The translations under genes were made by a program, and so were the position numbers. Under the pieces are notes generated by a model. That model was not told the origin of the DNA. It did no database searches and saw only the letters and a program-made list of their open reading frames with translations. A DNA stretch of 64,000 nucleotides from Candidatus Hermodarchaeota archaeon (lineage in GTDB: Archaea > Asgardarchaeota > Hermodarchaeia > Hermodarchaeales > Hermodarchaeaceae): contig JAEOTO010000031.1 of NCBI GenBank assembly GCA_016839805.1, forward strand, positions 168,322-232,321. The letters run 5' to 3'. Positions 30,615-38,821 of the stretch are shown here, in pieces. Position 1 is the first letter of the stretch. Each line of letters begins with the position of its first letter.

Positions 30615-31067
30615 TTAAGTTCCGCGAACCAATGTGATCTCCATTGCTGATACGTTAGCAACGTTGCCTTCTGCAGTTTTGACCTGTTCAGTTGAGATAT
30701 CGATGTTACGCACAACGAGATCAGTCATGAACCGGTTGCGAAGGACCTCGGCCACATCTACAGCGCGGCTGATAGCGCGACCACGAGCCTTGATAACCAG
30801 TTCCTCAGGATTCCGATTGAGCTGCGTAACACAAGCAGTGATGTAGCTCATGAGGGGTTTGCTACCGACGAACACGACGCTTTCGTCGCGTCGGAACTTT
30901 GCGGGTTCAGCTTTCTTCTCAGGTTCTTTAGCAACCTTCTCAGCTTTGGGTTTCCCAGCCTTGGGTTTCTCAGCCTTGGCTTTTTCAGCCTTGGCTTCGG
31001 TTTTCGGTTTTTCAGCCTTAGTTTCTTCAGCTTTTGGAGTCTCAGCAGTGTCTGATTCTTTAGACAT
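30615..31067 (-). CDS. albA: DNA/RNA-binding protein Alba with ~60-aa KAEKP-rich N-terminal tail
   Basis: VFVGSKPLMSY, IKARGRAISRAVDVAE, VSAMEI. Confidence 0.92.
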   Translation of the reverse strand: MSKESDTAETPKAEETKAEKPKTEAKAEKAKAEKPKAGKPKAEKVAKEPEKKAEPAKFRRDESVVFVGSKPLMSYITACVTQLNRNPEELVIKARGRAISRAVDVAEVLRNRFMTDLVVRNIDISTEQVKTAEGNVANVSAMEITLVRGT

Positions 31068-32339: not shown

Positions 32340-32444
32340 GTTCGCACCCTAGACAAGAGGAATTTTCTAAGATGGAAGTGAGAAAACCCGAAACCTATAA
32401 AAGTACTGGACTGGGTGCCTCAACTACACCGTGGGTGGCTTTGT

Positions 32445-32834
32445 ATGTCGAAGGAATCAGATGAACTTAAACGCATTCGGGAGCGGAAACTCCAGGCCCT
32501 GATTGCAGAACAGCAACGACGTGAAGCTGCAAACTCGGTAAAAATTGAACGCGAGAAAGAACGTGAACAAGTTGTCCAAGCGATTTTTCTCCCTGATGCA
32601 GTAGATTATCTGAAGGAACTTAAAAAGATGAAACCAGATATTGCTAACCGTATTGAAGATTTAGCAATCGCACTTTTCTTACGACGCCAATTGGTAACTC
32701 GAATACCAAAAGCAGGTGTACTACTAGTCCAGCGGAAATTAGAAGGTGTGGAACCAAAAATTACTGTGAAGCGACGGGGCGAAGATGAAGTTAGCTTCTA
32801 TGAAGCGGTTCGGAAAGATTTAGCTGAACAGTAA
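32445..32834 (+). CDS. PDCD5-like (dsDNA-binding family) protein
   Basis: DELKRIRERKLQAL...MKPDIANRIE...ITVKRR pattern. Confidence 0.72.
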   Translation: MSKESDELKRIRERKLQALIAEQQRREAANSVKIEREKEREQVVQAIFLPDAVDYLKELKKMKPDIANRIEDLAIALFLRRQLVTRIPKAGVLLVQRKLEGVEPKITVKRRGEDEVSFYEAVRKDLAEQ

Positions 32835-32900
32835 ATTGAACAGGAAAGACTCGACTCTTTTTAGGTACTCGCCTTTTTTTGATTTCAGCTGGTTAAACAT

Positions 32901-33386
32901 CTAGTAAACTGCTGCTTGTGCTGTCCCAGCTGAGGCTTCTTTTAAAACCCGACCCTGTCGGTTTTGGAGGGCAACTTTGATAACGCTAACAGCATTAGCT
33001 CCCCAAACCGTTCGTTTTACGTCTCGTTCGAGCATTTCAATTGCTGAATCGTTACTTAGTTCTTGAAATGCTGTAGGGCCTAAATGAAGGAGCAGATGGA
33101 GGATAGTTCCAGCTTCATTGAAAAGGGGATTGGGAGGAAGATCCATCTCAAGTGATTCCGAAGGAGGTGACGATACTTGTATCTTCCAATGGAAATATCG
33201 TTTCCGTGCCTCTTTCCGAATGTCCACTAACCCAACGCAACAAAGAACTTCAATGACATCGTATAGTCGGCGTTTTTCTTGGAGTGGCAAGCCTAGATGC
33301 ATGAGGAGAGTGTTTGCGGTATATTCTTTTTCAGGATGTTCCCGCAAAAAAGTGATTACATGACGCGCAACTTCGCCTAATTTCAT
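32901..33386 (-). CDS. E2F/DP-like winged-helix DNA-binding protein
   Basis: KLGEVARHVITFLRE...KRRLYDVIEVLCCVGLV...WK matches E2F pattern LG....F..LL.E...KRRIYDITNVLEGIGLI...WK. Confidence 0.72.
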   Translation of the reverse strand: MKLGEVARHVITFLREHPEKEYTANTLLMHLGLPLQEKRRLYDVIEVLCCVGLVDIRKEARKRYFHWKIQVSSPPSESLEMDLPPNPLFNEAGTILHLLLHLGPTAFQELSNDSAIEMLERDVKRTVWGANAVSVIKVALQNRQGRVLKEASAGTAQAAVY

Positions 33387-33674
33387 ACTGATATCCTCGC
33401 CCAGTCTCTCATGTTACAAGGGAGCTCCAGGTAGCTCCTCTCATAGGAAAGTGAGATGAAAGTTACATCTACACCTTTCGAATCAGATGAAAGTTTCCCC
33501 CATAACATAAAGTGTGTTCTTATCCTTTCTTCTTTCTCGTTAAAAAGTGCTGGTATTACATGGAAAAGAATTAATCGAGGTGAAACGGAGAAAGTAGTTA
33601 TTGACAAAAGTCAGTAAAAGGGTAGAGCTTAAATCAATAGATTCCTTGCTAGGAAGGGGGCAAGGCTGGTCTGA

Positions 33675-34895
33675 ATGCGAAAATTGCGTCAAGGGTTGGT
33701 GGCAACATTTTTCTTTCTCCTAGCGCTACTTGCAGTGCTACCTCCCCAAACAGCGGCCTTTCAATACATCCATTACTGGCGGGTAAACTTTACCGGTTTT
33801 TTAGAAGTGTCTGGAAACCAATCACTTCCAATTCTGCCCTATTGGAATTACATTGGCAATCAATCCTGGCAAACATGTGAGCAAATTCATTTCGACATGA
33901 CTCATAACAATGATACTATCGAGCCCATTGAGATCGTAATCGACCTTGATGGAAACCCTCAGCTGGTTTTGAATCTTACAACACCCCTAGAACCGAATGA
34001 CACACTAACGTGGCACGATGAATGGTTAATCTCCGTGTCGAACCTACGACCGCGTCTGCCCCAGATTTACATTGATCAATCCGGAAACATCAGTGAAATC
34101 GAAGAACTAATGGAACCCGAGGAGTATGATCGTTACACACGTGGGACAACGTTATGGAAGACGTGGAACCAGTCTTTAGTAAACACATCACGAGACATTC
34201 GAAATAGCCTTCCCATTGAATTGCATAACAACACACTTGCACTTGTTCATGCTGCAATCCGATGGATTCAAACCAACATCCAGCGATCTATTGGATTATC
34301 CGAACCTCAATATCCAGAAGAAATCATAGTCAGTAAAATCGGAGACTGTGATGATCAATCCAATTTATTGATCACATTTTTACGAATTTTTAATATTCCG
34401 TGTTATCTAATGACAGGCCATTGGTTTCAAGAAGGAGCTAGTACTAATGGCTACCTCTGGGGATCAGTAGAAGAGAACGCCTTTTTCTATGTTAATTGGG
34501 AGAATGCAGTTGGTCATGGATGGGCGATGGTGTATGTTCCTCCATGGGGTTGGTTACCCTTTGATCTAACAGCAGCGGGTTATGGAGTTGACCCAGCTAA
34601 CACCTATTATGAATCGCTATATGCTTCGAGCTTACCATTTGTTACCTTGTGGCAGGTCGTTGTTACTGATTACATTCAAGAACGTCGAACAGAGAAACTT
34701 GATTTATTCACCTTTGAACTTCACCGTATTGAATACGAAGAATGGATTTCACTTGGTTCAATTCCAATCGCTGACTTTCAATACTTCTTGACTAATGTTG
34801 CCACCTTAGTTGCACTAATAGGCACTCTGGCTTTGTTCGGTTGTATTATTGGAATTGCCCTTCGGCGTCGAGGGAAGGAGGCACCTAAACAATGA
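33675..34895 (+). CDS. Membrane-anchored transglutaminase-like protein
   Basis: Signal peptide; GDCDD, GHGW, GWLPFDLT (Cys-His-Asp triad); C-terminal TM; ATGA overlap with bshC. Confidence 0.85.
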   Translation: MRKLRQGLVATFFFLLALLAVLPPQTAAFQYIHYWRVNFTGFLEVSGNQSLPILPYWNYIGNQSWQTCEQIHFDMTHNNDTIEPIEIVIDLDGNPQLVLNLTTPLEPNDTLTWHDEWLISVSNLRPRLPQIYIDQSGNISEIEELMEPEEYDRYTRGTTLWKTWNQSLVNTSRDIRNSLPIELHNNTLALVHAAIRWIQTNIQRSIGLSEPQYPEEIIVSKIGDCDDQSNLLITFLRIFNIPCYLMTGHWFQEGASTNGYLWGSVEENAFFYVNWENAVGHGWAMVYVPPWGWLPFDLTAAGYGVDPANTYYESLYASSLPFVTLWQVVVTDYIQERRTEKLDLFTFELHRIEYEEWISLGSIPIADFQYFLTNVATLVALIGTLALFGCIIGIALRRRGKEAPKQ

Positions 34896-36667
34896 TTTCC
34901 CGGGCTGCCCCTAACGAATTGTATTCTGAATACGTCTTTGATGGAAAAAAAACAGCGCTAGAATTCTGGGGGCATATCCCCCATAACATGAAAGAAGCTG
35001 TGACCCTTAGTAAATCCATAATCAAAGCGTATCGGGAAAAACACCAACCACTCTTCACACCTGAACGACTTAATGATTTACTCAAAGCCATTAAAACATT
35101 TCATCAAAAACACAAAGCCTTAACTCCAAACGCCAAGCAAAATCTTACCCTTCTTGAAGAGCAATATGGTGCAGTCGAAGCAGGTCACCAACCAGCCCTC
35201 TTAGGTGGTCCAGGATTCGTTATTAACAAACTTGCCGCCATTGCACGCTTAGCGGCGTTCCAACATACAGCACCCATCATGTTTGTGGGTGATCATGATC
35301 ACGAGCAAAAAGAATTGACAGTAATTCATCTACCAAGTCCAGGTCCCCGAGGACTTATCTTTACATACCGAGTACCACGCGAGTATCAACTATCACCCTT
35401 ACATGTACTTCCCCTCCCACCTCTTACCTGGTTGAAACAGGTAGTTGAAAAAATCACATCAACATATCATGAAATGGTTGCAGATTCTGGAAGGGAAAAG
35501 AAAGACATCTACGAAACCAGAATCCAACGTCTCCGTCAATTACTCGTAAACACGTATAATCAAGCCAACACGTTTTCTGAATGGACCGTGTTGATTTGGA
35601 TTCAAATCATCAACATGTCCCAAGATGTTGGGATTCTCTTTCAGGTGTTCTCAGACCCAAGGATTCGCGATCTAATGCTCCCTGCCTTTGAATATCTTTT
35701 AGCGTCCTCAAATCGCACTCAACTAATCCAAGCGCTAAATCAAAGTGCAACCAAGCTTGAAAACCTTGGTTATCAACCCGGAATAGGCATACGCACAGAG
35801 AATTATGTACCCTTCCATCTCGAATGTCTGACCCAAGGCTGTCATCGAACCCGTCTTGACCCACATCTTACTGATTATTCGACAAGCAGTACTATTGAAA
35901 TCTCAGCTAACTGTCCTAAGTGTAATACGATTCATACTCTAGAATTGAAAGCCAGTTCACCTGATCTTTCACCCTGGAAGGACTTTTTATCACCACGAGT
36001 AGATACTAGAGCCTTTCTCGTACAAAGCTATACACCTGTAATTCTTCATTGTGGTGGAGCCGGAGAAACAGATTACCACGCCCAGGTTTCACCTGCACTT
36101 AAGGCCATAAAGAGTATTGCACCCATTTTCTTCCGCTATACAAGGCTGTATTATGGAAACCCATGGACACACCGCCAAAGTCTGAAACTTTCCCAAGAAA
36201 ATCTAAGCCCGTTAGACCTTAGTGAACTTCAACGCTATTCCTCTGCAATCATCACAGGATATAAGGAAGAAAATGTGGGAGTCATCCAATCGTTATTTGC
36301 AGCAAGTAATGAACACATCACAAAAACGGCTACCCACCTGATTCAGGTTGAATCACAAATGGAGAAGAAACGAATGGACACAATTATTTTACAGCGCGAA
36401 GCGTCAGAACCAACTATCAAAAAAGAGCTCCAAACAGAAATTGGTGCACTAACCCGTAATCGCCAGTTAATACAAACCTATCTTTCGCAAATGTTTGGTC
36501 GCTATTCCCCTGAACGGCTTGGTCAAGAAGTGAGTTTTGCATGGATTGACTTTGCTTTATCCCTCAGCCCAGAGCACCTTTTCTCCAGACTTTTTACTCA
36601 CTACCAGCCACTTACGCCGTCAGCTGCAACTTTCTACTTACCTGAAAACCCAACTAAGCTTGAATAA
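34892..36667 (+). CDS. bshC: Bacillithiol cysteine-adding enzyme BshC-like
   Basis: AVEAGHQPALLGGP...NK, DHD, SPRVDTR..VQ, GGAGE.DY.AQ, C-terminal coiled coil; adjacent to bshA. Confidence 0.75.
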   Translation: MISRAAPNELYSEYVFDGKKTALEFWGHIPHNMKEAVTLSKSIIKAYREKHQPLFTPERLNDLLKAIKTFHQKHKALTPNAKQNLTLLEEQYGAVEAGHQPALLGGPGFVINKLAAIARLAAFQHTAPIMFVGDHDHEQKELTVIHLPSPGPRGLIFTYRVPREYQLSPLHVLPLPPLTWLKQVVEKITSTYHEMVADSGREKKDIYETRIQRLRQLLVNTYNQANTFSEWTVLIWIQIINMSQDVGILFQVFSDPRIRDLMLPAFEYLLASSNRTQLIQALNQSATKLENLGYQPGIGIRTENYVPFHLECLTQGCHRTRLDPHLTDYSTSSTIEISANCPKCNTIHTLELKASSPDLSPWKDFLSPRVDTRAFLVQSYTPVILHCGGAGETDYHAQVSPALKAIKSIAPIFFRYTRLYYGNPWTHRQSLKLSQENLSPLDLSELQRYSSAIITGYKEENVGVIQSLFAASNEHITKTATHLIQVESQMEKKRMDTIILQREASEPTIKKELQTEIGALTRNRQLIQTYLSQMFGRYSPERLGQEVSFAWIDFALSLSPEHLFSRLFTHYQPLTPSAATFYLPENPTKLE

Positions 36668-37760
36668 CTTTTTCATAAATCGCTTCGTATTGAGGTAAGA
36701 CTTTCTCAACCGTATGATGCTTAATGATATGTTGCCGAGCCTGTTTACCTAAGCGACCCGCAAGAGTGGAATCGGTTAGGATGGCATATAGCTTTTCAGC
36801 CATTGCATCAATATCACCAAAGGGTACGAGAAGCCCGTTTTCGCCATCTTCGATAATCTCAGGTATTCCCCCAACAGCTGTTGAAACGACAGGTAATCCA
36901 CAACTCATAGCCTCAAGAAGCGACAAGGGTGCACCTTCTAACTCAGAGCTTAGTGCAAAAGCATCGGCACATCGAAGATACTGATGGACATCTCGTTTGA
37001 ATCCAGGACATTGAATACGGTTATTCAATTCATATTTTCGGATTAACCGATCGACATCATGTCGGGTTGGACCATCTCCAAGCAAGAGCAAGTCGACATC
37101 AGGCACCTCGGAAGCAATTTGGGCAAAAGCTGTCACTAAATCGCTCACTCGTTTCACTGGACGAAAATTCGAGACGTGAATTAATTGTTGTTTCCCATTT
37201 CTCATCTGAAATTCACAGGCATTAGGTTTAAACAATTCAGTATCTGTGAAATTAGTAATAGGTTCAATTGAACAGCGAACTCCCAAGGTCTGTTCTGCAG
37301 TTTGACAGATATGGTTCGTGACACAAGTTACAGCATGCGCAGCCTCTACTGCAAACCGTGTGGCAGGTTGATAAGCTGGATCCGCACCCAGCGTATGAAC
37401 ATCAGAACCATGTAAGGTCACAACATAAGGAACTCCCGTCATTTGATTTGCCATAAACGCAGACAAGGCATGGGGAATAGCGTAATGCACATGCAAAATG
37501 TCCAGCTGATGCTTTTGAGCCACCTGAGCCATTCGAGAAGCAAGTGCAACCGTATAAGGGGGATATCGGAAAAGTGGATACTCCAGAACATCAACAAGAT
37601 CCACTTTGACATTTTCGTAGACCCCTTCTTGTAACTCAAATGGCACTTCGTAAGTAATAAAGCGCACTTCATGGTCGCGTTTTGCTAATTCAACGCCTAA
37701 ACGGGTGGCTAGAAGGCCTGAACCACCCACACCGGGATAACACGTGATGCCAATTCGCAT
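36654..37760 (-). CDS. bshA: N-acetyl-alpha-D-glucosaminyl L-malate synthase BshA
   Basis: MRIGITCYP..GGSG..AT.LG, YPLFRYPPY, HVHYAIPHA, TLHG.D, HVSNFRPVKR. Confidence 0.9.
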   Translation of the reverse strand: MRIGITCYPGVGGSGLLATRLGVELAKRDHEVRFITYEVPFELQEGVYENVKVDLVDVLEYPLFRYPPYTVALASRMAQVAQKHQLDILHVHYAIPHALSAFMANQMTGVPYVVTLHGSDVHTLGADPAYQPATRFAVEAAHAVTCVTNHICQTAEQTLGVRCSIEPITNFTDTELFKPNACEFQMRNGKQQLIHVSNFRPVKRVSDLVTAFAQIASEVPDVDLLLLGDGPTRHDVDRLIRKYELNNRIQCPGFKRDVHQYLRCADAFALSSELEGAPLSLLEAMSCGLPVVSTAVGGIPEIIEDGENGLLVPFGDIDAMAEKLYAILTDSTLAGRLGKQARQHIIKHHTVEKVLPQYEAIYEKVIQA

Positions 37761-37945
37761 CGTTAATCCCTTGGCATCCCGTCTTACCCGCCCTTATGTC
37801 TTCCGTTGTCCGAAACTTACCCAGACCTGTGCCAGAATGGTGTTCGGTTCCTGCATCATCGACGGGCACTGCCCCACCAGGGGGCTGTCACCTCCCACCT
37901 CACGACAGGCGTTTAGAGTCTCCGCCCAACTGTCGGCGACACCAA
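37761..37945 (-). ncRNA. Candidate structured leader / ncRNA upstream of bshA
   Basis: GC-rich non-coding stretch behind TTTTTATA box (37961-37968); closing stem UGGUGU/ACACCA, GCCCC/GGGGC hairpin, kink-turn-like GAGGUGGG...CCCGUC-GAU-GA. Confidence 0.5.
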
Positions 37946-38146
37946 TGTGTCCAAGAAGGATATAAAAACTCCACCTAATGAAACTCCCTTTCACGAAGAC
38001 AGTTAGATGGTAATACGGACTAGTTGTCAATAAATGGACCTAGAAAAACCACGAAATATCACCTATTAACACCAATTAAAATGAAATTTCGTGATTTTTC
38101 CTTCAGCAAGGAAAACTTTTGGTGCTAAAAGAGCTTACTTACGGAT

Positions 38147-38821
38147 ATGCCTCTTTCCGCTTCAAATCGATTACTAATTGTTGGAGCCCATCCAGACGAT
38201 GAAACCTTTGGTTGTGGAGGAACTATTGCTCTTGAAACTGTTCGAGGAACCAGCGTTACCGTTTGTTGTCTAACAGGAACACCTCAGCGCCATAAGGAGT
38301 TACGAGCTGCGTGTAAAATACTCGGTGCATCGGTAATTGCTTATAAGGGTACGGATTTGGAGCTCATTGTTTCTGACGTCACAAAGGTGCTTATCCCCAT
38401 CATCCAAGAGCTCAAACCTCAAGTGATTATCTCACACAGTGGCAATGATTATCATGATGACCACCGAGTTGTGTACCAGGCACTTTTCCGTTCAGCTGAA
38501 TGGGCAGGTCATGCAACACAATATAAAACAAAAGCATGGCGACCTCACCGCCTACTAAGCATGGAAATTAATACACTATTAGCCGCACCAACCTTACTTG
38601 TCGATGTATCCGATTACATTGATTTGAAAATGCGAGCAATCAATCGCTATCAAAGCCAATTGAAAAAAACCAAACAATACTATCATGAATTTAATTTACA
38701 AAAGGCAAAATTACGAGGACTTCAGGGTGGCTGTGAATATGCAGAAGCATTTCAGGAGGTCCTTATGCCCATTCATGGACCCTTCTATTCACCTTCTCCG
38801 ACAGTAAAAAGCATCTTTTAG
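38147..38821 (+). CDS. bshB: PIG-L family deacetylase (BshB-like)
   Basis: GAHPDDE..GCGGTI, H...DYHDDH, VDVSDY...K..AI..Y.SQ, RG...G.EYAEAF; divergent from bshA. Confidence 0.75.
   Translation: MPLSASNRLLIVGAHPDDETFGCGGTIALETVRGTSVTVCCLTGTPQRHKELRAACKILGASVIAYKGTDLELIVSDVTKVLIPIIQELKPQVIISHSGNDYHDDHRVVYQALFRSAEWAGHATQYKTKAWRPHRLLSMEINTLLAAPTLLVDVSDYIDLKMRAINRYQSQLKKTKQYYHEFNLQKAKLRGLQGGCEYAEAFQEVLMPIHGPFYSPSPTVKSIF

Follow-up and report, generated by a model that had tools for sequence, protein, structure and literature searches.

A homodimeric, GC-dyad-reading role proposed for an Asgard E2F/DP homolog with a conserved C-terminal domain

The E2F/DP transcription factors drive G1/S transcription in eukaryotes and were long held to be eukaryote-specific. 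Within a 64,000-nucleotide stretch of an assembly classified as Candidatus Hermodarchaeota archaeon (GenBank GCA_016839805.1, contig JAEOTO010000031.1, positions 168,322 to 232,321 of the forward strand; hereafter the window), a coding sequence on the minus strand at 32901-33386, with its stop codon at 32901-32903, specifies a 161-residue E2F/DP-like protein, as read from the open reading frame list and its translation. Here, we describe a computational analysis of this protein and of its possible target sites. By its profile matches, the protein begins with a genuine winged helix of the E2F/DP family, 68 residues long and carrying an invariant RRxYD motif, and the C-terminal 78 residues are a conserved domain found only in one of two types of Asgard E2F-like protein, its fold matching no known one. 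The protein is most likely a homodimeric, GC-dyad-reading DNA-binding regulator. We assign a probability of about 0.6 to the whole explanation, in which an Asgard E2F/DP homolog acts as a homodimeric regulator that reads a GC dyad and has a candidate site upstream of orc1/cdc6.

Asgard E2F/DP homologs, including the subfamily of the window protein, are already published. Eme et al. 2023 (Nature 618:992, PMC10307638), whose account credits de Mendoza & Sebe-Pedros 2019 with first pinpointing them, report in Supplementary Discussion 4.1.5 that E2F/DP homologs occur in Asgard genomes and are absent from other archaea. The same work states that the base-contacting residues are kept, that only the DNA-binding domain is homologous, and that the Asgard proteins lack the regulator (Rb)-binding and dimerisation domains; a 2024 review (PMC7617429) repeats the report of these homologs. 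The sequence table of Eme et al. (PMC10307638) holds about 151 PF02319 entries. Seventeen of them have a KRRLYDVIEVL helix identical to that of the window protein and three have KRRVYDVIEVL, both sets being labelled Hermodarchaeia in the part of the table at hand, and four Odinarchaeia entries have KRRIYDVLDVL. Proteins with the same helix and the same C-terminal motif as the window protein also stand in Supplementary file 5 (PMC10307638). Sequence comparison thus identifies the window gene as a member of the published Asgard group, whose subtype occurs in Hermodarchaeia and also, more divergent, in Odinarchaeia. Because sequences of this subfamily stand under Hermodarchaeia in that table, the genome is identified as a metagenome-assembled genome (MAG) of a Hermodarchaeia-type Asgard archaeon.

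The presence of E2F/DP in Asgard archaea bears on the origin of cell-cycle control, a point already in the literature. Added here, as hypotheses, are a self-pairing C-terminal domain without a recognisable fold and a 6-bp GC dyad beside a replication-initiator gene. No published statement on the tails or target sites of Asgard E2F-like proteins was found in the searchable papers, and self-pairing through an own domain together with a conserved DNA word beside orc1 may be new to this analysis. If binding beside orc1 is true, the link of E2F to the replication initiator or origin would predate eukaryotes as well as DP, Rb and cyclin/CDK control.

The E2F/DP winged helix

The winged-helix DNA-binding domain (residues 1-68; 33183-33386, minus strand) was delimited by its Pfam E2F_TDP match, an AlphaFold2 (AF2) model and hhalign. 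These residues had been quoted in an initial annotation of the sequence, and they are identical to the N-terminus of the 161-residue reading frame. The E2F/DP landmarks claimed there are indeed found in order: helix 1 (residues 3-16), the recognition-helix motif KRRLYD (K38-R39-R40-L41-Y42-D43; 33258-33275, minus strand), the VL..VGLV stretch and the wing Trp, W67. Also correct was the remark that Glu replaces the Asn of the eukaryotic NVL; this residue is E46 here and is Glu or Asp across the whole subfamily.

In a Pfam search, E2F_TDP (PF02319) matches the protein with 36.8 bits (E = 3.3e-9) over residues 3-67 and profile positions 5-63 of 65, well over its gathering cut-off of 25.7 bits, whereas the TrmB profile (PF01978) gives 14.9 bits, under its cut-off of 25.6. 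An NCBIfam search of the protein returned no family. A word-indexed search retrieved 32 homologs at 58-96% identity, all with PF02319, all annotated 'hypothetical protein' and all from MAGs labelled Thor-, Prometh- or Hodarchaeota, and an exhaustive HMMER search retrieved a divergent group of 152-residue proteins at 25-30% identity, one member of which is labelled Odinarchaeia. The two types of Asgard E2F-like protein, type A (that of the window) and type B, were represented by alignment A1, with 25 type-A sequences down to 22-26% identity, and alignment A3, with 13 type-B sequences. All 25 aligned type-A relatives match E2F_TDP in a Pfam scan, and all 10 type-B proteins scanned do so over cut-off. 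TrmB, by comparison, is matched by two of the 25 type-A relatives even at E ≤0.01 (TFIIE_beta weakly by three) and stays under its cut-off in every protein scanned, its weak scores reaching 25.2 bits in type-B proteins. Residues K38, R39, R40, Y42, D43 and V44 are invariant in A1, and the RRxYD motif (R39, R40, Y42, D43) is invariant in 25/25 type-A and 13/13 type-B sequences. Furthermore, when the A1 profile was run against 177,635 PDB sequences with hmmsearch, it retrieved E2F8 (E = 4.2e-5), E2F4 (2e-4) and DP2 (0.042). The remaining rows were DnaJ-type J-domain chains at E ≥0.079, which are chance matches, and none of the hundreds of other winged helix-turn-helix (wHTH) chains in the PDB set was retrieved.

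The AF2 model of the whole protein (mean predicted local distance difference test score, pLDDT, 76.9) consists of the winged helix at residues 1-68, a disordered linker at 72-82 and a C-terminal domain at 84-154. The winged helix is modelled at pLDDT 83-91, with helices at 3-16, 24-31 and 35-50 and strands at 54-59 and 62-67. The whole model superposes on E2F4 with a template-modelling (TM) score of 0.72 at 25% identity (Foldseek) and on DP2 with a Z score of 8.5 (VIA). This superposition does not discriminate between families: Foldseek of the whole model against the PDB yields no match at E ≤0.001 and places E2F4 at rank 16, the VIA wide search gives Z scores of 8.5-10.6 for many wHTH families, and Z-alpha, ArsR/HlyU, MarR and Fur domains score level with or above E2F4/DP2. 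A 65-residue winged helix is not assignable by fold and the fold searches are generic; the family assignment is accordingly taken from the sequence profiles only.

These fold rankings, together with the weak TrmB scores here and in type-B proteins, are what would be expected of a generic archaeal wHTH regulator of the TrmB, MarR or ArsR kind whose R.YD helix had converged on that of E2F/DP. The TrmB family shares with the window protein an archaeal winged helix, a similar helix-3 pattern and sub-threshold profile matches; it differs in possessing a C-terminal sugar-binding domain, which the window protein lacks, and the window protein has the RRxYD motif and wing Trp of the E2F/DP signature. 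TrmB is below cut-off everywhere while E2F_TDP is above it in all the type-A and type-B proteins scanned, the profile search of the PDB yields E2F8, E2F4 and DP2 only above the chance rows, KRRxYD is invariant, and a winged helix of this length gives no family by fold alone. We therefore consider such convergence highly improbable. A better match to TrmB and a loss of RRxYD among homologs had been named in the initial annotation as grounds for abandoning E2F/DP; the first is contradicted by the scores (36.8 versus 14.9 bits; 25/25 versus 2/25 relatives) and the second by the persistence of the motif down to 22-26% identity. Its proposal of a candidate prokaryotic relative of E2F/DP is supported by the Pfam score, the invariant motif and the result of the A1 profile against the PDB.

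The C-terminal domain, its predicted pairing and the two Asgard types

The winged helix is followed by a variable linker (residues 69-83; 33138-33182, minus strand), in which pLDDT falls below 50 at residues 72-82 and the alignment columns are poorly conserved, and then by a subfamily-specific domain (residues 84-161; 32904-33137, minus strand) that conservation and models mark as a predicted homodimerisation domain. This domain of about 78 residues is conserved in alignment A2. Its motif M118..R121-D122.K124-R125 (33012-33035, minus strand) is invariant at the five named positions in both A1 and A2, including relatives at 22-26% identity, one of them labelled Odinarchaeia. Modelled alone, the domain reaches a pLDDT of 81.4. 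No convincing fold match was found in the PDB (best Z 3.4 in the VIA wide search; best Foldseek E 0.72) or in the ESM Atlas (TM ≤0.42, and a score of 0.77, at the level of noise, in an Atlas feature search); should the domain be an obligate dimer, its model as a monomer may not capture the complete fold. No Pfam family matches the domain, and E2F_CC-MB and DP are absent from the protein at E up to 10, in agreement with the earlier impression that the last 80 or so residues bear no obvious resemblance to the marked box. A search for longer or fused forms of the domain, which is weak evidence, found none.

Prediction of two copies with A1 gave a median interaction prediction score from aligned errors (ipSAE) of 0.45 (runs of 0.57, 0.15 and 0.45), while the best of three controls scored 0.00, so the homodimer modelling suggested in the initial annotation passes its controls. 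In calibration, 20 of the 30 proteins with structures solved as pairs, compared with 1 of 23 with single-chain structures, reached the ipSAE mark, counts that hold only roughly here because the custom alignment A1 was used. At least 52% of the contacts are common to the runs, and partner pLDDT is at least 60. The predicted interface lies mainly in the C-terminal domain, at residues 88-107 and 119-145, and includes a symmetric antiparallel pairing at about residues 94-102 (contacts 97:97 and 98:98). Additional contacts join the winged helices through residues 3-11 of helix 1 and residues 43-53, in the C-terminal half of helix 3; the E2F4-DP2 interface (1CF7) is reportedly also formed via helices 1 and 3. 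These models suggest that the protein probably pairs with itself through its own C-terminal domain. Two copies would be held together by the symmetric strand pairing and by helix and hairpin contacts of that domain, and their winged helices would touch as well via helices 1 and 3.

With eukaryotic E2F4/DP2 and E2F8 (PDB 1CF7, 4YO2), the window protein has in common the winged helix, the RRxYD motif in helix 3 and the wing Trp. Unlike the eukaryotic proteins, it has no DP partner and no coiled-coil/marked-box, transactivation or pocket-protein-binding region, it is predicted to pair with itself instead of forming a heterodimer or having tandem domains, and the Asn after RRxYD is Glu. In place of the region through which pocket proteins (Rb) control eukaryotic E2F, it stops at residue 161 in an unrelated domain. 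Its conserved C-terminal 78 residues, predicted to homodimerise, likewise set it apart from the Asgard homologs as described by Eme et al.

The two Asgard types were compared using E2F-like proteins of the window and of 19 genomes from various families, 20 loci in all. Type A has a three-residue insert before KRR and the M..RD.KR C-terminal domain, and its spacing before KRR is that of E2F4, with which it aligns without gaps. Type B (for example at loci L019-L035) lacks the insert and continues after the winged helix with a heptad-rich stretch and then a beta-rich domain; residues 75-125 give weak matches to bZIP, HALZ, YabA and ZapB, and no type-B protein scanned matches E2F_CC-MB or DP. The type-B winged helix is clearly homologous to that of type A (hhalign 98.8%, 76 columns), and type-B genes too are mostly single copy, whereas the type-B tail is unrelated to the type-A domain (hhalign probability 0.08%) and the usual neighbours are different, namely cyclophilin-like and CxxCxxCC proteins. 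Each of the two tails resembles a dimerisation device, and the published statement that a dimerisation domain is missing needs qualifying accordingly: what is lacking is the eukaryotic one. In most other Asgard E2F-like proteins the winged helix is followed by a coiled coil and then a beta-rich domain, and this type-B layout parallels the eukaryotic E2F order of DNA-binding domain, leucine zipper and marked box, sequence homology being undetectable. The cyclophilin-like gene (PF04126) lies convergently downstream at 13 of 21 loci, and the CxxCxxCC protein upstream at seven.

A conserved GC-core element upstream of orc1/cdc6 and competing readings

The RRxYD motif of E2F/DP touches the GCGC core of its sites (PMC4862756); E2F homodimers bind GGCGCC and E2F/DP binds GCGCGC (PMC4686757). 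In the manner of E2F homodimers, the predicted dimer would use its two RRxYD helices to recognise a short dyad with a GC core ([C/G]GCGCC-like), and it would act as a regulator that binds DNA sequence-specifically and does without the DP/Rb/cyclin layer of eukaryotes. Neither PF16421 nor PF08781 (E2F_CC-MB, DP dimerisation) was found in the genome, which is 86.7% complete, and RB_A (PF01858) has no match over cut-off there, the best reaching 12.6 bits. Given these profile searches and the single PF02319 gene, both an E2F-DP-type heterodimer and control by Rb are excluded for the organism, within the limits of a genome of that completeness.

The genome has three orc1/cdc6 genes and two ftsZ genes, and among these the canonical word stands only before orc1_a (contig C22, 204109-205344), as GCGCCAAA at -149. 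A block GTTCACAWTT-WW[C/G]GCGCC-AAWTGTGAAC is nearly invariant upstream of orc1_a in 14 genomes of the family; 12 of the 14 have the [C/G]GCGCC-AAW core at about -148, and 12 have TTSGCGC. Perfect-palindrome copies occur at L063 (TTTCGCGCCAAA) and at L066 and L067 (TTGGCGCCAA), and an origin recognition box (ORB; GTTCCAGTGGAAAC..AAGGGG) about 110 nt further upstream is conserved too. All four Odinarchaeia genomes (family f2) carry AAGCGCCA, with the GCGCC core at -150 to -154 of orc1 in DNA of 25% GC. In the three genomes of family f20, TGGCGCC lies at -220 between GTTCACA and TGTGAAT arms and TTTTTGGCGCG lies at -147; in both genomes of family f14 the word is at about -285. The AT-embedded word was not found in seven families without an E2F-like gene (f9, 0/16; f4, f7, f17, f16, f12 and f3), the word in f12 and f3 being confined to GC-rich, coding-like DNA. 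At the family level the E2F-like gene and the orc1 word are correlated (4/8 versus 0/7; Fisher one-sided p ~0.05, ignoring phylogeny). Judged from this conservation, the orc1 element is a real, selected sequence, and its core matches the E2F-homodimer word. The best candidate site for the predicted dimer would thus be the [C/G]GCGCC about 150 nt upstream of orc1/cdc6 beside the ORB box, a word kept in three families that carry this subtype; this is the least secure step of the proposed mechanism. If the homodimeric E2F-like protein of Hermod/Odin-type Asgard archaea, paired through a domain of its own, bound this dyad between the ORB box and orc1/cdc6, it would be placed at the promoter of the replication initiator or at the origin, a role that we regard as plausible but unlikely.

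Two further features of these orc1 loci were observed. The region upstream of orc1_a (G000, contig C22, ~203,750-204,108, outside the window; loci L054-L068) is origin-like, with repeated TGTTCAC/TGTTAAC words and an AT-rich stretch. The orc1 orthologs of family f3 (G002:C1:43844-45046, L129; G014:C234:2588-3649, L130) contain one in-frame TGA each in an otherwise intact match, which may reflect stop-codon recoding in that lineage.

Several observations weigh against the proposed role. The word is missing within 500 nt of the orc1 ortholog in families f6, f18, f13 and f15, which have type-B or short proteins. The word-bearing families are probably one clade, and shared ancestry confounds the correlation; the orc1 regions of f9 are only 23% GC. 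The GC core is centred in a 10-nt inverted repeat within an origin-like region, so the constraint on it may come from Orc1 or some other factor. Genome-wide, TTTSGCGC shows no intergenic enrichment (84 sites in coding and 11 in intergenic DNA; density ratio 0.98), and TTTSGCGCSAAA does not occur in the genome. Intergenic TTSGCGC words stand before about 28 genes, including orc1 and the large RPA subunit; the others, among them TnpB, an Arf-like GTPase, Rpb2, TIM and proteasome alpha, are unrelated. Only 7 of 13 congeners keep the RPA word, which also overlaps the Shine-Dalgarno sequence and ATG of a divergent Lhr gene. Neither ftsZ gene has GCGC or CGCG within 350 nt upstream, and ftsZ was rejected as a target; autoregulation through a GC-core site is likewise unsupported, the conserved upstream blocks of the gene containing no GCGC-core word. 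The scan of replication-gene promoters called for in the initial annotation gave a [C/G]GCGCC word before orc1, no genome-wide enrichment, a weak case at RPA and no word at ftsZ. Finally, the Glu in place of Asn after RRxYD means that DNA specificity may differ, dimerisation and DNA binding are both predicted properties, and one of the three dimer runs reached only 0.15 ipSAE.

Part of this evidence would suit an origin-associated or chromatin-type DNA-binding protein that binds the GC-core element within oriC or, less specifically, DNA at large, and acts on replication initiation or on the local architecture of DNA instead of on expression. The sole conserved candidate site lies between the ORB box and orc1 inside an inverted repeat, promoters show no regulon-like word enrichment, and the neighbours across lineages are DNA-binding or chromatin proteins (PDCD5-like; Alba at 8 of 21 loci; TBP at two). 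These neighbours, however, are convergent or separately transcribed and hence form no operon with the gene, and an operator in the promoter would be an equally good reading of a site 150 nt upstream of orc1. Moreover, to our knowledge the characterised PF02319 proteins are transcription factors without exception. We regard an origin or chromatin role as possible but unlikely, and prefer a homodimeric regulator that reads a GC dyad.

A different account would place the gene outside archaeal descent altogether, as a gene recently acquired from a eukaryote or giant virus or as an assembly contaminant. The distribution over Asgard families is patchy, and a giant-virus-like contig encodes a protein with tandem E2F_TDP domains (P0039). 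Against this, of the 301 genomes sampled in the phylum, 122 have PF02319 over cut-off, mostly in single copy, as do 35 of its 70 genera, whereas none of 14 control genomes does; the window genome has one match over cut-off. The contig is 232 kb long, in a 50-contig, 2.31-Mb assembly, with an even composition of 42-46% GC and archaeal neighbours, and synteny around the gene is kept within the family. The gene itself is intronless and preceded by a Shine-Dalgarno sequence, and its C-terminal domain was found in no longer or fused protein. The initial annotation had argued against eukaryotic contamination from the lack of introns and the archaeal surroundings, and the long contig with Alba and PDCD5-like genes bears this out; contamination or recent transfer is very unlikely, and an Asgard E2F/DP homolog acting as a homodimer is the reading we retain.

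Neighbouring genes, upstream blocks and minor observations

The convergent neighbour of the E2F-like gene encodes a PDCD5/TFAR19-like double-stranded DNA-binding protein (32415-32834, plus strand; PF01984, 29.1 bits). A 66-nt spacer separates it from the 3' end of the E2F-like gene, and it holds the same position at L017 and at L018 of Odinarchaeum, a locus identical to the Odinarchaeota LCB_4 entry of the Eme et al. table. The other neighbours are an Alba protein, an M28 peptidase, a divergent transglutaminase-like membrane protein and a BshC-like/GT4/PIG-L set. A search for an operon partner by synteny was negative, the recurrent neighbours (PDCD5-like, cyclophilin-like, CxxCxxCC and Alba) being convergent or separately transcribed. 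The Alba protein (30615-31067, minus strand) has an N-terminal extension of about 60 residues rich in Lys, Ala, Glu and Pro, compared with lengths of 77-96 residues for Alba in other lineages; at the 8 loci of 21 mentioned above, the E2F-like gene has an Alba gene no more than five genes away. The BshC-like (34892-36667), GT4 glycosyltransferase (36654-37760, minus strand) and PIG-L deacetylase (38147-38821) genes are clustered at 34892-38821, are kept at L016 and L017 and, in this Asgard archaeon, match the genes of a low-molecular-weight thiol pathway of the bacillithiol type.

Three conserved blocks were revealed by footprinting of 33387-33674, read on the minus strand. The upstream block GTAATACCAGCAC-TTTTTAAC (33539-33559, minus strand), conserved in 16 genomes of two genera and containing the invariant word GTAWTACCA, lies about 150-170 nt 5' of the ATG. 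The GTAWTACCA and TTTTTAAC combination is common to both genera and is probably a TATA/B recognition element (BRE) region, its promoter role being read from the sequence; the implied 5' untranslated region is about 120-140 nt. The GACTGGGCGAGGATATC block (33390-33406, minus strand) abuts the ATG, is invariant in the genus and includes a Shine-Dalgarno-like GAGGA. A 1-nt indel in the second genus indicates that this block is non-coding, which explains the spurious N-terminal '..GLGEDI.M' extensions of some database entries. The third block, the TATA-like GATTTAAGCTCT, is that of the divergent gene at 33675. GTAWTACC was rejected as a word of promoters in general, being only 2.1-fold denser in intergenic DNA (24 sites); it also occurs at three places upstream of an operon of a small ribbon-helix-helix-like reading frame and ftsZ_1 (G000, contig C22, 165,100-165,220), which may be chance.

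Expression has weak support from one wetland metatranscriptome, in which three short contigs at 93-98% identity cover parts of the gene and of its neighbour (32675-32861, 32881-33000 and 33177-33327); they derive from a relative, are of low depth, give neither transcription start nor strand, and may include DNA carry-over. Elsewhere in the genome (G000, contig C21:97697), the gene of an Arf-family small GTPase, a eukaryotic-signature protein, has the perfect palindrome TTCGCGCGAA 113 nt upstream. Finally, P0039 (L178:6001-6588) and P0037 (L177:1948-2634) each contain two tandem E2F_TDP stretches, as in the atypical E2F7/8. The contig of P0039 is 70 kb long and dense with reading frames lacking homologs (ORFans), together with TBP-like, RCC1 and Ser/Thr-kinase genes, and it resembles a giant virus rather than an archaeon.

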